Of a DNA stretch of 64,000 bases, positions 14,402-21,621 are shown piece after piece. The stretch is from NCBI GenBank assembly GCA_038227875.1, contig JBBRPR010000017.1, positions 32,001 through 96,000 on the forward strand, written 5' to 3'. Made by a program: the position numbers and the translations under genes. Position 1 is the stretch's first letter. Each line of letters opens with the position of its first letter. This DNA comes from Planctomycetota bacterium. GTDB lineage: Bacteria > Planctomycetota > SZUA-567 > H5-PLA8. The notes under the pieces were generated by a model that was not told the DNA's origin, did not search any database, and saw only the letters and a program-made list of their open reading frames with translations.

Positions 14402-15721
14402 TTACCAGATGATCGGAATGGCGCCACCGTCGTCGACGGAGTAATTCCAGCGTTTCAAATACGTTTCCGCTGGCTGGAAGTCATCGTTGAAGCGCGCCAA
14501 TTCCTGCTTCAATCGCGCGTCCAATTGAGCTTGAAGCGCGGCGCAATCCGGGCGGCCGATGAGATTCGTGAGTTGGTACGGATCGCGTTCGTTGTCGTAG
14601 AGCAGCCAGGGACCGTCCAAATTTCGTGCGTACGTATGCCGGTGCGTGCGCAGTGTCCGCCACGGCAAGCCACGGTACTCGGCAAACGGAGCGATTGCTG
14701 CGGCGAGCGTGGCGTCAGGACCCACAAAGTCGCGGTTCAACACCGCGGCGGAAAGATCCAGACCGTCCACCGTCGACGGCACGGGTACGCCCAGCAGAGA
14801 CAGCAGCGTGGGCATCAGGTCCCAGACATTCAAGAGCGTGTTGACTCGGCTTCCCTTGGTGAATTGCTTCGGTGCACGGATCACAAATGGAACGTTGATG
14901 CTCTCTTCCCACGGATGTTGTTTGCGTTGAACGCCGTGACTGCGCAGCATGTCGCCGTGATCGCTGGTAAAAACAAAAATTGTCTTCTCCAGCTGACCGT
15001 TCTCAGTCAGTCCGCGCACCAGGCGGCCAATCTGTTCGTCCAGCGCTGTGACATGAGCGTAGTAGCCGCGCAACTCGTCCCGGTTGGGATTCGGGCAATT
15101 GGGTCGCACCGGCACGTCGGGCGGGTACAGGTCGAGAAATTCCTTGGGCACCTGATCGTAGGGATTGTGTGGCGGACCCCAGGACAGAAACAGCGCAAAA
15201 GGATCCGCGCCGCTTCGCTTTAAAAAGTCCAGAGCAACATCGGTCTGCGCGCGCGCGTCGTAGCCGTTCCAATGTTTCTTTTCAGTGGAGTCGCCGGAAT
15301 AGTAATGCGACTGCATGTAATTGTGATCGCAGTTGGCGACGGCCCAGAAATCGAATCCCTGGCGCCGCGGTCCGGGCGGCGTATAGGCCGAACGTTCATT
15401 GCCATCCAAATGCCATTTGCCAATGTAGCCGGTGCGGTATCCCGCTTCTTTCAATACGGTGCCGAATGTGGGGCGATCTGTTGGCAGGCGCAAATCGTTG
15501 ATGAACAACCCGTGCCGCAGCGGGTATTGGCCAGTCAGCATGCTCGCACGCCAGGGCGTGCAGACCGGCATGCCCGAAATGCAGTTCACGAATTCCAGTC
15601 CTTCGGCCGCGAGCTTGTCCAAGTTCGGTGAAATCACCGCGCGATTGCCGGAGTATCCCGTGGCTTCCGCGCGCATTTGATCGGCAAAAACAAAGACCAG
15701 ATTGTATTCGGGTCGACTCAT
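14402..15721 (-). CDS. Formylglycine-dependent sulfatase
   Basis: FADQMR, CTPWRASMLTG (CxPxR), GYIGKWHL, PPHNP, FTSDHGD. Confidence 0.95.
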   Translation of the reverse strand: MSRPEYNLVFVFADQMRAEATGYSGNRAVISPNLDKLAAEGLEFVNCISGMPVCTPWRASMLTGQYPLRHGLFINDLRLPTDRPTFGTVLKEAGYRTGYIGKWHLDGNERSAYTPPGPRRQGFDFWAVANCDHNYMQSHYYSGDSTEKKHWNGYDARAQTDVALDFLKRSGADPFALFLSWGPPHNPYDQVPKEFLDLYPPDVPVRPNCPNPNRDELRGYYAHVTALDEQIGRLVRGLTENGQLEKTIFVFTSDHGDMLRSHGVQRKQHPWEESINVPFVIRAPKQFTKGSRVNTLLNVWDLMPTLLSLLGVPVPSTVDGLDLSAAVLNRDFVGPDATLAAAIAPFAEYRGLPWRTLRTHRHTYARNLDGPWLLYDNERDPYQLTNLIGRPDCAALQAQLDARLKQELARFNDDFQPAETYLKRWNYSVDDGGAIPIIW

Positions 15722-15823
15722 CGTGGGCACCTTTCAACAGTAAACGGCAGTCACGCTCTAATCACTCCACGCGTTGCGCGCAAGTCGCAGTTCCGCGTTC
15801 TTAAAGAACGTTTCACGGAAAAT

Positions 15824-16057: not shown

Positions 16058-17365
16058 ATGCTGGGCGATGTCGTTCAGGAATTACGGTGGCGCGGGTTGT
16101 TGCAGCAGATGACCGACGAGACGCTCGAGAAGCGTCTGCTCCAGAATCCATTTACGCTCTACGCCGGTTTCGACCCGACGGCCGACAGCCTCGCGGCGCA
16201 TCACATGATTCCGCTGCTCAATCTCGCCCGCTTCCAGCGCGCCGGGCACAAGCCCATCGCGGTGGTCGGCGGCGGCACGGGGTTCATCGGCGATCCGTCG
16301 GGCAAAACTGAAGAGCGCCAGTTGCTCACCGCGGAGCAGCTTGAGGCCAACGTCGCCGGTCAGCGCAAGCAGATGGAGCGCTTCCTGGATTTCACGCCCG
16401 GTACGGCGCAGGCCTCCGTGCTGAACAACGCCGATTGGCTCTGCGGCATGAACCTGATCACGTACCTGCGCGACGTCGGCAAGCATTTCACGGTCAACTC
16501 GATGCTGGAGAAAGATTCCGTCCGCCGGCGCCTGGAAGATCGCGCACAGGGCATCAGCTACACGGAATTCAGCTACATGCTGCTGCAGGCGTACGATTTT
16601 TATCACCTCTTCAAGCACCACGGGTGCCGGCTGCAGATTGGCGGCAGCGATCAATTCGGCAACATCACCGCCGGCTGCGAATTGATCCGCCGCCGTCGTC
16701 CCGAAACCGAGGCGCATGAGACGTGGGGCGCATACGGTTTGACCACGACCCTGATTACCGATTCCAACGGCGAGAAAATCGGCAAGACCACGAAAGGCGC
16801 GCTGTGGCTGGATCCGAACAAGACGACGCCGTTCGATTTCTACCAGTACTGGATCAACACCAGCGACGCCGACGCCATCAAGTACGTCCGTTACTTCACC
16901 GACGTGAACGAAGCCGACGCGCAAGCCGGCGAGGCCGATCACGCCAAGGACCCGGGCAAGCGTTTGCTGCAGAAGAAGCTCGCCCGCTTCATGACGGAGC
17001 TGGTTCACGGCGTGACGGAACGGGAGAACGCACAGAAGATGACCGACGATCTTTTTACCAAGTCGGTAAAAGACCTCGACGAAGCTGCGCTCTTGAACCT
17101 TGTGAAAGATGCTTCGAGTTCGACACTCTCGCGATCGCGGTTGGAAGGCGAAGGGATGCCAATTATCGAGTTGCTTGCAGAAGCTACCAAACTGTGGGCA
17201 TCAAAGGGCGAGGCGAAGAAGTCGATTCAAGGCAACGGAGCGAATCTCAACGACGTTCGAGTGACTGATCTTCAGAAAAAAGTGACGACGGCTGAGCTGC
17301 TCCATGGCAAGTACTTGGTGCTGCGGAAGGGGAAGAAAGACAATCATCTGGTGAAGGTGGAATGA
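16058..17365 (+). CDS. tyrS: Tyrosine--tRNA ligase
   Basis: LYAGFDPTADSL, GDPSGK, EFSYMLLQAYDF, QIGGSDQFGNI, KIGKT, C-terminal S4-like domain (LRKGKK); GGAGG RBS. Confidence 0.97.
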   Translation: MLGDVVQELRWRGLLQQMTDETLEKRLLQNPFTLYAGFDPTADSLAAHHMIPLLNLARFQRAGHKPIAVVGGGTGFIGDPSGKTEERQLLTAEQLEANVAGQRKQMERFLDFTPGTAQASVLNNADWLCGMNLITYLRDVGKHFTVNSMLEKDSVRRRLEDRAQGISYTEFSYMLLQAYDFYHLFKHHGCRLQIGGSDQFGNITAGCELIRRRRPETEAHETWGAYGLTTTLITDSNGEKIGKTTKGALWLDPNKTTPFDFYQYWINTSDADAIKYVRYFTDVNEADAQAGEADHAKDPGKRLLQKKLARFMTELVHGVTERENAQKMTDDLFTKSVKDLDEAALLNLVKDASSSTLSRSRLEGEGMPIIELLAEATKLWASKGEAKKSIQGNGANLNDVRVTDLQKKVTTAELLHGKYLVLRKGKKDNHLVKVE

Positions 17366-17395: not shown

Positions 17396-17436
17396 ACTTC
17401 GTCGGGAGCGACGCCAATCACGGCTCCCGACGAAGT
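17396..17436 (+). terminator. 14-bp stem-loop after tyrS (possible terminator)
   Basis: ACTTCGTCGGGAGC (17396-17409) pairs perfectly with GCTCCCGACGAAGT (17423-17436); only a short T tail. Confidence 0.55.
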
Positions 17437-17518
17437 TTAAAATAATTCATAATCTTCCGTCACATTTCGATCCCACTGCATCTTGAGTCTGAGTGAATGA
17501 GAGAGGTGTGGAGGAAAA

Positions 17519-18781
17519 ATGTCGCTCAACGAATGGCTGGAGTCGGCTCGCGGCGGAAATCTCGACGCCTTTGAACGGCTCATGGATGCGACGCAAGGCA
17601 TGGTCTATGCCGTCGTGCGCCGCATTCTGATCGACCGTGAAGACGCGGCGGATGCCGTTCAGGAGACCTACGTCCGGGCGTTTGGAAAGCTGTCGGAGAT
17701 TCGGAATCCAGACTCCTTTCCGGGATGGCTCAGGCGTATCGCGGTGACGACTGCGATGGGTCTCCAGCGTTCTCGCCGTAACCACTTTGTTGAGTTCGAC
17801 GACGATCTGCACATTCCCATTCTGGACGATCAGGAAACACGCTGGAGCGAATTTCAGCACGCGGCGATGGCAGAAGCCATCGTCAAGCTCGGCGAGAGCG
17901 ACCGGCTGCTGTGTGAACGCTTTTATCACGGCGGCTGGCCCCTGGCGCGACTGGCGGAAGATCTGGAAATTTCGGAAAGCGCCGTGCGCAAACGCCTCCA
18001 GCGCATCCGCGAACACTTGCGAAAGGATATTGAAATGAACGAACAACGAACACTGGCCGGCGAACACCTGCCAGGAAATCTGCCGCGGAAAGTGATTGAG
18101 CTGCTGGCCCGTCCCCGGCTCACCACCATTCCGGAAAATCCGGTGGGCCGCATCTGGCATCTAATCCAATCGCACCTGCCCAAGTCCGTGGACATGGACG
18201 TTTCGGAAACGGTGACCGACGAGCAAGTGCGGGAGATGCTCGGCGACTTATATGACGCCGGTTCTGACATCGGAGGGGGGCAGGGCATTCATCGCGTCGA
18301 CGACGCGCAACACCTCCGCGCCGAAATCACGCTGCCGTTGCTGCTGGCGTGCCGCGGGCGCAGCGGGCCTCAGTCGATCGTGAGCGCTGGGAAAGTCTAC
18401 CGGATTGCGAAAGTCGGACCCGCTCACATGGAATCCTTTCATCAAGGCGAATGGCTGAACGTTAGCGAGTCGGCCTCGCTCTGGGACTCGATGGGCCTGA
18501 TCAGCGGAATGATCAAGGGGCTCTATCCCGACAAGGCGATCCGCTGGGAGAAAGTTCAGCTTCCTCTGTGCGAGGAAGCGTGGGAACTCTTTGTGGACTG
18601 GAACGGCAAGTACGTCGCGGTGCTGGGGTGCGGCCGCTACAAGGATCGGATCGTGGAGTACCTCGGCAACGATCCCCGTCGATTTACCGCTATCGGCGCG
18701 GGCTTCGGTTTGGAGCGCATGGCCTGCGCTCACTTCGGGATCGATGACATTCGCAAGGTGGAGGGAATCCGGCTGAGTTGA
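17519..18781 (+). CDS. ECF sigma-70 factor fused to a PheRS-alpha-like class II aaRS domain
   Basis: N-terminus: AADAVQETYVRAF...FPGWLRRI and LAEDLEISESAVRKRLQR; C-terminus: AGKVYR...HMESFHQGE (motif 2), VLGCG, GFGLERMA...FGIDDIR (motif 3); GGAGG RBS. Confidence 0.85.
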   Translation: MSLNEWLESARGGNLDAFERLMDATQGMVYAVVRRILIDREDAADAVQETYVRAFGKLSEIRNPDSFPGWLRRIAVTTAMGLQRSRRNHFVEFDDDLHIPILDDQETRWSEFQHAAMAEAIVKLGESDRLLCERFYHGGWPLARLAEDLEISESAVRKRLQRIREHLRKDIEMNEQRTLAGEHLPGNLPRKVIELLARPRLTTIPENPVGRIWHLIQSHLPKSVDMDVSETVTDEQVREMLGDLYDAGSDIGGGQGIHRVDDAQHLRAEITLPLLLACRGRSGPQSIVSAGKVYRIAKVGPAHMESFHQGEWLNVSESASLWDSMGLISGMIKGLYPDKAIRWEKVQLPLCEEAWELFVDWNGKYVAVLGCGRYKDRIVEYLGNDPRRFTAIGAGFGLERMACAHFGIDDIRKVEGIRLS

Positions 18782-18826: not shown

Positions 18827-19267
18827 TCATCCCGCCAACTTCGTGCGAAATTCCTTCGGCGTGTAGAACTGGTGCGACTTCTCGTCGAGCAGCGTGGCAC
18901 CAAACTGCTCAAATATCTGCACGTACAGCCGGTAAAAAATGCGCTGTTCCGCGCCGCTGCGGGCGTTGATGGTGATGACTTCGCCGGGCTTCGGCGGTCC
19001 TTGCTCGAGATGCACTTTCAGGACCACGCCGCCTTCGACTTCCCAGAGCAGTTTGACGTTGCTGTCGGTGGCCGCCTGATCCCATGGCGCAGCCGGGATT
19101 TTGGTCATGTGCGGAACTTCCATCAGCTTCTCGGTAACGGAGTTCAGTGAGCCGAGCGAATGAAGTTCGATGGGCAGAATGGTGGTGTCTTTGGGTGGTA
19201 TGGGATCGGGTTTCCAGAACGAAAACTGCGCGATCTCTGAATTGTGACTGGAATGATTGTCTGACAC
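18827..19267 (-). CDS. Hypothetical protein (146 aa)
   Basis: GTG start with GGAGG upstream on the minus strand; globular-looking composition. Confidence 0.65.
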   Translation of the reverse strand: MSDNHSSHNSEIAQFSFWKPDPIPPKDTTILPIELHSLGSLNSVTEKLMEVPHMTKIPAAPWDQAATDSNVKLLWEVEGGVVLKVHLEQGPPKPGEVITINARSGAEQRIFYRLYVQIFEQFGATLLDEKSHQFYTPKEFRTKLAG

Positions 19268-19428
19268 GAGAAGCCTCCTTCGCCCGCCAAGTCCGCTCCC
19301 CCTCCAAAGCCCTCACGCAACACGTACCCTATCCCTAAGCAAAATATACACCATAGTTATCGACGTGGATGCAGACCAAGTGGGCAGAATTGGACAATAA
19401 AATGAGGCACGTGTGCAACGGCCGGACG

Positions 19429-19632: not shown

Positions 19633-21621
19633 CTAGTACTCCACCTGCGCCACTCCGTAGAGCTTCGGCGTGCTGACACTAAAGGTCAGCGTTCCATTGC
19701 GGACGGCGCTCTTGATCTCCTTAGCGACCGGATGATCCTGATGCGGGTCGGTGAGGGTGACGCGCGCTTTTTTGCAGCCAGCGGGAAGTGCGACGGTGGC
19801 CGTCATCCGCGGTTTGACGTTCGCGGCGTTGTAGTTGATGAAATGCAGATCGACACCGCGGCTGGCACGGATGGCTTCGACGAAGACATGGTCGTTGCCG
19901 GTGACGTGGTGTGACAGCGGCTGTTCGCCGGCAGCATCGGCGATGGCTTTCAGGAAAACCTTCCGGTTCTTCACCGGCGCCAGCGCTTCGCCGCTGATCG
20001 CAAACCAATCGGAGATATTCCAGGCGGTGAGCACGTCCCAGGTCGGGACGTAGACGAGGCAACCGTTCCCCACCGGAGACTTCACGTACTTATCCGAGGG
20101 CTCTTTCATCCACTTGCCCAGTCCGCGCGACCATTCGCGCGGGCGATACCACTCGTTAAATTGCACGGCCTTGCCGGAGACAATCACGCCACCGCCGGCG
20201 CGCATAAATGCATCCAGCGCGTCGATCCACGCGTCGGGGATCGCTTGAATTTCGGGCAGCGCGACGATGCGGTACTTCGACAACTGATCGATCTGCTTGT
20301 TGAAGATGATGCCCCACGGCAGCTTCTCGACGGCCAGCGTCTGCTCGAAGGCGATCAGTTGTTCGTGAACCTTGGCGCAATTGTAATTCGTCGACGGTTC
20401 GCTGCGGAAGACGGCGATGTCGTGAAGGTGTTCGCGTTCGTGGTAGAGCGCCTGGTTGGCGCGCAGAAACTGCGTGACCGGCGTGAACGCCATGCAGTCG
20501 CCAATGCCGCCGATCCAGCCGTGGCCTTCGATCTTCTTGCGGTAACCGTAGACCTGGCTTTCGACAGCAGCCATCTCGTCGTGCGGTTCGTCCACGACGC
20601 CAATATGCGTGACGTGCGACGACTTCCACAACCGCACTTCGCTGACGACCTGCCCGCCTTTGACGCCGGGGCTGTAGCCGTCGATGCAGGTGAAATCGAG
20701 AATGTCGGTGAACGCGCCGTGGCAGATGCCGTTGTCGAAGGCGCGGTTGTTACCGTGAATGCCCTTGATGTTCATGCCCACGGCCGTCGTCGGCGACTGC
20801 TTCTTCACGTAGTTGGCCATCTCCGCGTAGAATTCCACCACGGACGTGATGCGGTGATCGATCCAATCCTGCATTTGCGGCAGGACAATCCGGTCCATGC
20901 GCCAGGGTTTGTTGGCCTGGCTCCAGACGGGAGGCATCACGTCCGGATGCTCCGCGAAGCCGTAGCGAATGAGGCATTGTTCGGGCGTGTACTTCGCGCG
21001 CACCATCTCACGCAGATGCGCGACGCAATGTTTGCAGCGGCACGAACGCGGTTCGTGGCGCAGGATCTGGTTGTCGAAGAAAATCTCGTCGGCCTTGACT
21101 TCCTGAACCGCGACGTCCAGCACACGTTTCACATACGCGCGGTAGCCGGGGTTGCGCAGGCACGGAAACCAGCGCTGCAATTGGTAGCCGCTGTACGTGA
21201 CGGGTTGTCCGTCCTGATCTTTGCGCGCCCACTCGATGGCCTCCGGAACTTCCTTGAAGAAGTAATCCGTGAACATCGTCCCACCTACATAGACCGAGAC
21301 GAGTAGCCCGTGAGCTCGGGCTCGTTCGGCATACTGAATTGTCTTTTCGATCGACGAGCGTTCGTAGGTCAGCCCGGCACCTTTAAAGAAGTGCGCGCGA
21401 TCGGGAATTTGAATCCCCGTCGCCGCCATGCGTTCCACATTTTCCTCGGATTGATAACCTTCACTGCGGCGGATGTCCCGTTCGCTGGCCGTGCCGCGGT
21501 TGCGGTAAAACCAGGTGGGTTCGTGCGTGGGCCAGAGGACCGACTTGGCGGTCTCCTGAATCGCTGAAAGATCAGTGGGGAAAGGACGTGCAGGATCATT
21601 GCGCAACCATTTTTTAGACAT
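19633..21621 (-). CDS. Putative glycoside hydrolase-like protein (TIM barrel plus GH42-type trimerisation-like domain)
   Basis: PCLRNPGYRAY...DEIFFDN...CRCKHC followed by LSKYRIVALPE...FMRAGGGVIVSG; family not resolved. Confidence 0.55.
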   Translation of the reverse strand: MSKKWLRNDPARPFPTDLSAIQETAKSVLWPTHEPTWFYRNRGTASERDIRRSEGYQSEENVERMAATGIQIPDRAHFFKGAGLTYERSSIEKTIQYAERARAHGLLVSVYVGGTMFTDYFFKEVPEAIEWARKDQDGQPVTYSGYQLQRWFPCLRNPGYRAYVKRVLDVAVQEVKADEIFFDNQILRHEPRSCRCKHCVAHLREMVRAKYTPEQCLIRYGFAEHPDVMPPVWSQANKPWRMDRIVLPQMQDWIDHRITSVVEFYAEMANYVKKQSPTTAVGMNIKGIHGNNRAFDNGICHGAFTDILDFTCIDGYSPGVKGGQVVSEVRLWKSSHVTHIGVVDEPHDEMAAVESQVYGYRKKIEGHGWIGGIGDCMAFTPVTQFLRANQALYHEREHLHDIAVFRSEPSTNYNCAKVHEQLIAFEQTLAVEKLPWGIIFNKQIDQLSKYRIVALPEIQAIPDAWIDALDAFMRAGGGVIVSGKAVQFNEWYRPREWSRGLGKWMKEPSDKYVKSPVGNGCLVYVPTWDVLTAWNISDWFAISGEALAPVKNRKVFLKAIADAAGEQPLSHHVTGNDHVFVEAIRASRGVDLHFINYNAANVKPRMTATVALPAGCKKARVTLTDPHQDHPVAKEIKSAVRNGTLTFSVSTPKLYGVAQVEY

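Follow-up and report, generated by a model that had tools for sequence, protein, structure and literature searches.

A sigma factor joined to a PheS-type synthetase core

The stretch of DNA analysed here (hereafter the window; 64,000 nucleotides of GenBank assembly GCA_038227875.1 from a Planctomycetota bacterium, contig JBBRPR010000017.1, positions 32,001 to 96,000 of the forward strand) contains a gene that joins an extracytoplasmic function (ECF) sigma factor to a domain of the type found in PheS, the alpha subunit of phenylalanyl-tRNA synthetase (PheRS). The gene is a single open reading frame (ORF) of 420 amino acids (aa) with an ATG start, and its parts, together with the flanking features, are listed in Table 1. 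An earlier interpretation made from the letters alone (the sequence-only reading) had described it as sigma regions 2 and 4 in frame with a PheRS-alpha-like domain, and the ORF listing, Pfam, NCBIfam, a family profile and the structural model all agree with this description.

Table 1. Positions of the fusion gene, its predicted parts and the adjacent features in the window
Feature	Position	Strand	Evidence or remark
tyrS, full length, directly upstream of the fusion gene	16058-17365	+	TIGR00234, 355 bits
Inverted repeat 3' of tyrS; arms 17397-17409 and 17423-17435, 13-nucleotide (nt) loop, followed by TTTAAAATAATT	17397..17435	+	sequence
ECF-type promoter-like site; -35 GTCACA 17459-17464, -10-like CATCTT 17479-17484	17459..17484	+	
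Shine-Dalgarno GGAGG, ATG 4 nt downstream	17510..17514	+	sequence
Sigma-PheS-core fusion, full coding sequence (420 aa and stop)	17519..18781	+	ORF listing, Pfam, NCBIfam, homologues
Sigma region 2, residues 1-87, four helices	17519..17779	+	Pfam 22-80; model helices 3-85
Sigma2-sigma4 linker, residues 88-110, family motif VPVLDExETxW	17780..17848	+	conservation 0.66
Sigma region 4, residues 111-180, C132 and Y136 invariant	17849..18058	+	Pfam, alignment, model
Connector, residues 181-204, consensus ELLARPxLT	18059..18130	+	L195, L196, P199, L201 invariant
PheS-type class II synthetase catalytic core, residues 205-420	18131..18778	+	Pfam, profile, Foldseek, VIA-align
LRAEIT, residues 266-271, aligned to LR[ST][HQ]TS of PheS	18314..18331	+	76-member alignment
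Class II motif 2, residues 291-311, GKVYR...H...FHQGE	18389..18451	+	R295, F307, Q309, E311 each 76/76
Pocket strand LPLCEEAWE, residues 348-356, against FPFTEPSAE of PheS	18560..18586	+	C351 75/76, W355 74/76
Class II motif 3, residues 393-402, GAGFGLERMA	18695..18724	+	G397, L398, R400 each 76/76
Convergent 146-aa ORF downstream of the fusion, candidate gene	18827-19267	-	no Pfam match above threshold, no NCBIfam match

The sigma half is matched by the Pfam family Sigma70_r2 at residues 22-80 (E 1.5e-10, 41.1 bits, cut-off 24) and by the NCBIfam sigma70-ECF model TIGR02937 (81.7 bits, cut-off 42.9), and two Pfam models for sigma region 4 at residues 129-169 score just below their cut-offs (24.7 vs 25.7 bits for Sigma70_r4_2 at residues 135-167; 23.6 vs 24.1 bits for the other). 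Regions 2 and 4 are present and regions 1.1 and 3 are absent, as in ECF (group 4) sigma factors. About 240 aa follow sigma region 4, where more than 50 aa mark an ECF factor with an extension, and no anti-sigma gene lies in the neighbourhood. The sole Pfam family in the extension is tRNA-synt_2d (residues 267-414, E 7.3e-21, 75.2 bits, cut-off 19.8). The profile of the 76-member family covers the whole PheS catalytic core including the motif 1 region, with profile positions 203-412 aligned to positions 102-314 of the E. coli PheS chain (E 8e-30). Transmembrane segments are not predicted (the highest 19-residue Kyte-Doolittle mean is 0.87), as the sequence-only reading had noted, and the strings that it quoted (GKVYR...H...FHQGE, VLGCG, GFGLERMA...GIDDIR, LRAEIT and LPL) all occur in the translation.

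The AlphaFold2 model (mean predicted local distance difference test, pLDDT, 87.8; predicted template modelling score, pTM, 0.71) contains two helical bundles joined by a linker in the sigma half. The linker is modelled with low confidence (pLDDT below 50 at residues 88-107) despite its conserved motif, and the last helix of sigma region 4 continues as a long helix (residues 153-179) toward the C-terminal domain. A class II fold had been proposed for this domain, and the structural comparison corroborates it: VIA-align superimposes residues 205-420 of the model on Escherichia coli PheS alpha with Z 24.9 and a root mean square deviation (rmsd) of 2.1 A over 213 residues, Foldseek aligns about 215 columns with PheS alpha (TM-score 0.75-0.78, rmsd 2.3-2.7 A), and further class II synthetases and their paralogues rank next (Z 15-22). 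The connector between the two halves has the highest mean column identity of all regions (0.75), and conservation is lowest in the motif 1 region (residues 211-265; 0.50 vs 0.69-0.75 elsewhere).

A conserved ATP site and a rebuilt amino-acid pocket

The alignment of the 76 family members locates the constraint within the synthetase core. Eight residues are invariant in all 76 sequences (R267, R295, F307, Q309, E311, G397, L398 and R400), and R295, R400, F307 and the pair L266-R267 are retained in 19 of 19 sequences that span the more distant fusion tiers and true PheS. Within LRAEIT, L266 and R267 are invariant, position 269 is Asp in 69 and Glu in 5 of the 76 sequences, and position 271 is Thr in 71. 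The residues of the side-chain pocket differ from those of PheS in a consistent manner. The FPFT strand has become Y/F-P-M/L-C, SAE has become A-W-E, the His or Gln of LRTHTS is replaced by Asp or Glu, and G393 (72/76) stands at the position of the Ala in the GFAFG motif of PheS; the FPFT strand, this Ala and the aligned PheS positions presumably form the phenylalanine pocket. The parts of PheS that handle tRNA are missing. The N-terminal tRNA-binding domain (Phe_tRNA-synt_N), which is present in true PheS, is absent with the sigma factor in its place, and the HPAR stretch of PheS is conserved in none of the fusion tiers. Because the ATP-site residues are invariant, the pocket changes are themselves conserved, HPAR is unconserved and the N-terminal domain has been replaced, the nucleotide and alpha-amino-acid site is, as far as the alignment can tell, strongly constrained, the side-chain pocket is predicted to be of another specificity, and the tRNA-handling parts appear to be gone. 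The window protein keeps every invariant residue.

The fusion is clearly distinct from PheS itself. Both share the same fold, and motifs 1, 2 and 3, the LR pair and FHQxE are kept in the fusion; however, it scores 76 bits against the cut-off of 237.45 of the pheS equivalog model TIGR00468, and it is without the N-terminal tRNA-binding domain, the FPFT pocket with its specificity Ala and an adjacent pheT. An identity as PheS is rejected on the grounds of equivalog score, N-terminal domain, pocket and pheT context. A canonical pheS was expected elsewhere, and it is indeed located beside pheT on contig 23 of the same genome (300.6 and 450.8 bits, respectively), whereas the fusion gene lies on contig 17 next to tyrS as a single copy, with a core that is 25% identical to this PheS.

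Distribution and evolution of the fusion

The sequence-only reading had named an assembly chimera or a singleton as the finding that would overturn it, and both are ruled out by the architecture of the homologues, their species spread, the sequence clusters and the correlated identities of the two halves. The best 120 of 929 matches were examined, and all of them are about 419 aa long and carry PF01409 and PF04542. At least 90 stretches in a scan with one genome per species encode a relative when an alignment is used as the query; a single-protein query of the species-representative genomes retrieved no relatives. The carriers belong to five phyla and are mostly Acidobacteriota (Vicinamibacterales, Bryobacterales and Terriglobia, including the cultured Paludibaculum fermentans, L033), and the remainder are Planctomycetota (Phycisphaerales), Myxococcota (Polyangiaceae, Sorangium), Steroidobacteraceae and Latescibacterota. 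The C-terminal domain alone retrieves 29 clusters (50% identity) at E <= 1e-30 and 108 at 1e-10, and the ESM Atlas holds three clusters of the same architecture with 92, 152 and 57 members. Conservation is similar in the two halves, and the pairwise identities of one correlate with those of the other (r = 0.905). Judging from these comparisons, the protein is an old and stable fusion whose halves co-evolve. Free-standing or split forms were not found within the length classes searched, namely up to 735 aa. Two of the short matches lie on contigs of about 1.3 kb and the others start inside sigma region 4 or the linker, and they are therefore interpreted as cut gene calls.

The phylogeny of 62 sequences (FastTree) pairs the window protein with a metagenome-assembled genome of the Phycisphaerales, but this join is unsure because both are long branches. 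The gammaproteobacterial copies from Steroidobacteraceae (L041, L043, L046 and L053) form one clade with a support of 100 inside the acidobacterial sequences, which suggests that they were acquired from Acidobacteriota, and the patchy distribution of the family likewise suggests some transfer. In the phylum of the window, 300 other sampled genomes, seven of them from the same family, yielded no fusion, whether the query was the whole protein (just five candidates scored per genome) or the C-terminal domain (scored for nearly every candidate).

A second tier of fusions of about 415-428 aa was found in metagenomes (P0153, P0156, P0157, P0158, P0161, P0188, P0214 and P0220), with P0161 originating from Candidatus Poribacteria. 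Their cores are 24-32% identical to that of the window protein and much nearer to true PheS (104-175 bits in Pfam), with pocket strands such as W-PFTDPGW. Since these cores are closer to PheS, the architecture is probably older and broader than the family of the window protein. The metagenomic protein P0210 (596 aa) combines a sigma factor and a PheS-like core with a C-terminal GNAT domain (Acetyltransf_7, 27.7 bits), and this three-part structure hints at enzymatic chemistry in some relatives.

A conserved promoter upstream of the fusion gene

The upstream regions were compared for ORFs of 400-470 aa with at least 200 nt of upstream sequence, a condition that retained 62 of the 81 fusion ORFs. 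The motif GTCACN-N16-GTCYT is present in 57 of these 62 regions, with a spacer of 16 nt in all 57 and a distance of 4-105 nt (median 25) between its end and the start codon. Shuffled sequences contain it in a mean of 0.275 of 62 regions (maximum 2, 200 shuffles), and the opposite strand in 0 of 62. A position weight matrix (PWM) derived from the 57 sites gave a corresponding result for the 80 of the 90 related stretches that were retained as loci for the analysis of neighbours and promoters: 75 of the 80 have a match of more than 15 bits immediately before the fusion gene, which is circular for the 57 sites used in training. The extended form GTCACRNT-N13-TGTCYT occurs exactly once per genome in five of five genomes (5-10 Mb), always at the fusion gene, compared with two hits in total for the backwards control. 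This arrangement is the signature of a predicted autoregulated ECF promoter, and with a conserved promoter of its own the sigma half is presumably a working sigma factor.

The site in the window is a near-match to this pattern. Its spacer to ATCTT is 15 nt, one base short, and one base is changed (A for G). Autoregulation is less certain in this organism than in the family because the promoter departs from the consensus; the -10 box is likewise off consensus in two other copies from Planctomycetota (L003 and L020).

Genomic neighbourhood and candidate targets

The fusion gene probably forms a unit of its own in the window, because a hairpin follows tyrS and the downstream gene is convergent. 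The hairpin has 13-bp arms and a T/A-rich tail, and it is likely the terminator of tyrS, thereby parting this gene from the fusion; its 13-nt loop places it outside the reach of a simple terminator scan with a loop limit of 8 nt. The earlier statement that no anti-sigma gene adjoins the fusion holds true, with tyrS upstream and the convergent 146-aa ORF, which is without family hits, downstream. This ORF is not conserved beside the fusion gene at the other 80 loci. The adjacency of a class I tyrosyl-tRNA synthetase gene and a PheS-like sensor gene is suggestive, yet the pairing is unique to this window. A link to tyrS as a family feature is rejected, given that none of the neighbours of the window's fusion gene recurs at the 80 related loci and that the terminator-like hairpin lies between the two genes. 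Further out, a 442-aa sulfatase is encoded at 14402-15730 on the reverse strand (PF00884, 200 bits, SGSH_C-like C-terminus), and a 662-aa ORF at 19633-21621 on the same strand has sub-threshold matches (DUF6259, GHL6, Glyco_hydro_42/42M) and may be a diverged glycosidase.

A conserved operon, anti-sigma gene or other constant neighbour was not found across the 80 loci and the window, the fusion alone being common to all. Recurrent neighbours exist, and they are lineage-local. Pairs of PadR and FtsX/MacB genes are found at 14-15 loci in varying positions and strands, and a DNA-repair-like gene set characterizes 8-9 loci of the Vicinamibacterales. Neighbourhoods of the latter kind (L004, L006, L007, L010, L013, L018, L021, L034 and L037, from Vicinamibacterales and other Acidobacteriota) place the fusion gene behind a gene for a 5'-3' exonuclease and ahead of genes for an ATP-dependent DNA ligase, a DJ-1/PfpI protein and an Lhr-type helicase.

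In the genome of the window, the best PWM hits are located on contig 26 around position 19397 (+) and on contig 2 around position 248485 (+), with 20.7 bits each. They precede open frames of 1225 and 631 codons by 18 and 6 nt, respectively, and could be targets or chance matches. The same genome contains 27 ECF-like matches (E <= 1e-6) in open frames of up to 801 aa, and extended ECF sigma factors thus look common in it. The nearest sigma paralogue (contig 4, 136331-136879, +; 34% identity, E 4e-20) is a 314-aa ECF factor that ends in another, unassigned extension, about 130 aa long (locus L105, ORF 1486-2430).

Comparison with known systems

Regulatory domains joined to the C-terminus of ECF sigma factors are known from ECF41 (SnoaL-like), ECF42 (TPR) and the Cys-rich CorE proteins of ECF238 (PMC7826278, PMC8999054). 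The fusion resembles these factors in having a soluble domain after sigma region 4, no anti-sigma gene, a conserved motif in the sigma2-sigma4 linker and a promoter of its own. It differs in the nature of the extension, which is a full class II synthetase core with an intact nucleotide site in place of a SnoaL, TPR or Cys-rich domain. No ECF group with a synthetase-type extension appears in the main text and the searched part of the supplement of PMC7826278, and term searches in PMC8999054 and PMC7671368 revealed none either. ECF270, which is assigned an 'unknown mechanism' in PMC8999054, is not this family, since it is described with a soluble zinc anti-sigma factor encoded at position +1. 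Full-text literature searches on ECF or other sigma factors with synthetase-like or tRNA-synt_2d domains returned nothing relevant, in line with the earlier remark that no characterized sigma-synthetase fusion is known. The sigma-PheS-core design is apparently undescribed in the searchable literature.

Paralogues of aminoacyl-tRNA synthetases offer a second set of comparisons. SrmL, the 'PheS-related mystery ligase' (NF051887), is also a PheS paralogue and is partially matched by the fusion with 60.6 bits. This is weaker than the match to true pheS and far from the cut-off of 300, and an identity as SrmL is rejected; a literature search by name found no paper that uses it among the matches listed. 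HisZ and the HisRS-like domain of GCN2 are non-catalytic synthetase-like regulatory domains. They share with the fusion the employment of a synthetase paralogue in regulation, and HisZ is found among the fold matches (Z 15.5-15.7), but both are of the HisRS type, whereas the domain described here is of the PheS type with fully conserved ATP-site residues.

The closest equivalent in logic is BirA, the biotin protein ligase and bio repressor, which consists of an N-terminal DNA-recognition module and a C-terminal class II synthetase-like adenylate-forming domain, with the enzyme-bound adenylate as the regulatory signal. The fusion would likewise join a DNA-recognition module to a class II-like domain of the adenylating type. 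Unlike the fusion, BirA is a winged-helix repressor with a catalytic domain of the BPL/LplA family and not a sigma factor, and families of the BPL_LplA_LipB type are missing among the Pfam matches of the fusion at E <= 1; the likeness is thus one of logic. The analogy to GCN2 that had been drawn in the sequence-only reading is looser than that to BirA because the active site is intact in the present case.

Proposed mechanism and alternative explanations

We consider it somewhat more probable than not that the protein is a sigma factor of the one-component type that regulates its own gene. Its synthetase-like domain would, much like BirA, bind an amino-acid-like ligand along with ATP, and the occupancy of this site would switch the sigma factor. 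The fusion would then act as a soluble signalling device on a single polypeptide. Its N-terminal ECF half would recognize GTCAC(A/G)nT-N12-(G)TGTC(T/C)T and transcribe at least its own gene, which would amount to positive autoregulation. The C-terminal half would be a PheS-core paralogue that has diverged, with the sigma factor standing where PheS has its tRNA-binding N-terminal domain. Because the class II site for ATP and the alpha-amino-acid moiety is intact and the side-chain pocket has been rebuilt, the most likely ligands of this core would be ATP and, alongside it, an amino-acid-like compound that is not phenylalanine; adenylate formation would be possible. We infer that occupancy of the site may alter the packing of the core on sigma2, sigma4, the linker VPVLDExETxW and the connector ELLARPxLT, and that the altered packing may decide whether the sigma factor joins RNA polymerase. 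The sequence-only reading had already proposed a one-component sigma factor gated by an amino acid, an aminoacyl-adenylate or tRNA, which would link translation status to transcription. This proposal is supported in part: the fusion itself, the lack of a transmembrane segment and an anti-sigma gene and the retained ATP site are borne out, and the gating by a ligand and the link to translation status are hypothetical. Of the three ligands tRNA is the weakest, because the sigma factor stands in for the tRNA-binding domain and the HPAR stretch is unconserved.

Several observations weigh against this interpretation. The pTM of 0.71 leaves the arrangement of the domains unfixed. Docking of the sigma half and the core as separate chains gave a score of 0.48 (best control 0.00), with at least 92% of the contacts agreeing between runs and a partner pLDDT of at least 82; 116 of 157 solved complexes attain the docking mark, as do 2 of 215 mismatched pairs, and with scores of 0.60 or less just 18 of the 157 and both mismatched pairs attain it, so that a predicted packing of the two halves is weakly supported. 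Targets beyond the own gene did not emerge from the motif scans, from which weaker target promoters would escape. In five genomes the relaxed motif matched 16 times, five of these matches being the self-promoters, compared with 15 matches of the backwards control; in the genome of the window, strict boxes show no enrichment (14 at spacer 16 vs 11-27 at other spacers); and a second PWM hit within 6 kb on either side was found at 1 of 80 loci. The window protein is a long-branch member of the family with at most 50% identity to any homologue, it deviates at several near-invariant pocket positions, namely A268, E269, L348, L350 and C371, and its promoter copy scores below 14 bits with the family PWM. 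Conserved residues, moreover, document constraint and not function.

An unlikely alternative is that the protein is an enzyme in the first place. Its C-terminal domain would be a functional ligase, adenylating an amino acid and transferring it to an acceptor, be it a tRNA, a carrier or other protein, or a small molecule, with the sigma half mainly setting the enzyme level via its own promoter (compare EpmA/GenX, AsnA and the amino acid:carrier-protein ligases). The invariance of all mapped ATP-site residues would fit this explanation, as would the extra GNAT domain of the distant fusion P0210 and the fold shared with non-translational ligase paralogues (GenX 3a5y, Z 16.2; Bll0957 3mey, Z 16.6; AsnA 11as, Z 15.8). 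The sole strict promoter copy in five of five genomes lies at the own gene, so that the only visible conserved output is the protein itself. However, no gene for an acceptor or partner is conserved alongside in the 80 loci and the window, a sigma factor that serves only itself would be an odd means of enzyme control (weaker targets would again escape the scans), and bacterial PheS is inactive without PheT. The pairing of the PheS core with PheT leads to a further, improbable scenario, in which the core docks PheT or another protein via the old alpha-beta interface and the partner serves as an anti-sigma factor that is encoded elsewhere. A canonical pheT is present in the genome, the motif 1 region is retained in the core, and extensions of the ECF42 type are thought to work by protein contacts (PMC8999054). 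Such a partner switch is difficult to reconcile with the motif 1 region being the least conserved part of the protein, and it leaves the intact ATP site unexplained.

It is even less probable that the domain senses uncharged tRNA like the HisRS-like domain of GCN2 and couples the charging state to sigma activity. The domain is a synthetase catalytic core, and in PheRS it is this core that receives the CCA end of the tRNA, yet Phe_tRNA-synt_N is absent with the sigma factor in its stead, an anticodon-binding domain is missing, the HPAR stretch is unconserved in every fusion tier, and the strict conservation of ATP and amino-acid residues would be unneeded for the sensing of tRNA alone. The lowest probability is assigned to an extension that works independently of any ligand, as a structural or inhibitory appendage for folding or autoinhibition, comparable to parts of the ECF41 extension, with residues conserved for the sake of stability. 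The strongly conserved connector and, weakly, the docking of the two halves are in accordance with such a role; the conservation of both ATP-binding Arg residues, the adenine-stacking Phe and the Q/E pair in 76 of 76 sequences, largely maintained in the distant tiers, argues against it.

Within the favoured explanation of a ligand-switched, one-component sigma factor, a more specific version is conceivable and at the same time rather doubtful. The domain would be catalytically live: from ATP and some ligand that is not phenylalanine it would form an aminoacyl-adenylate and hold it tightly, and the enzyme-bound adenylate would free the sigma factor. The enlarged pocket would suit a bulkier or a hydroxylated aromatic amino acid. 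If true, this would be the first sigma factor under the control of its own on-board enzymatic reaction. It would also extend a BirA-like principle to the world of sigma factors and link, at the protein level, the quality of the amino-acid pool to promoter choice.

Biological significance

ECF sigma factors that carry their own sensor are the 'one-component systems' among sigma factors, and studies so far cover only a few kinds of extension. The fusion would add an enzyme-derived, nucleotide-binding type of sensor to them, and it would lengthen the short list of aminoacyl-tRNA-synthetase paralogues that were recruited to regulation. Its sharply defined and genome-unique promoter could provide an orthogonal sigma/promoter pair. 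Among soil Acidobacteria the family is common, and with Paludibaculum fermentans at least one carrier is in culture, which makes direct tests feasible.

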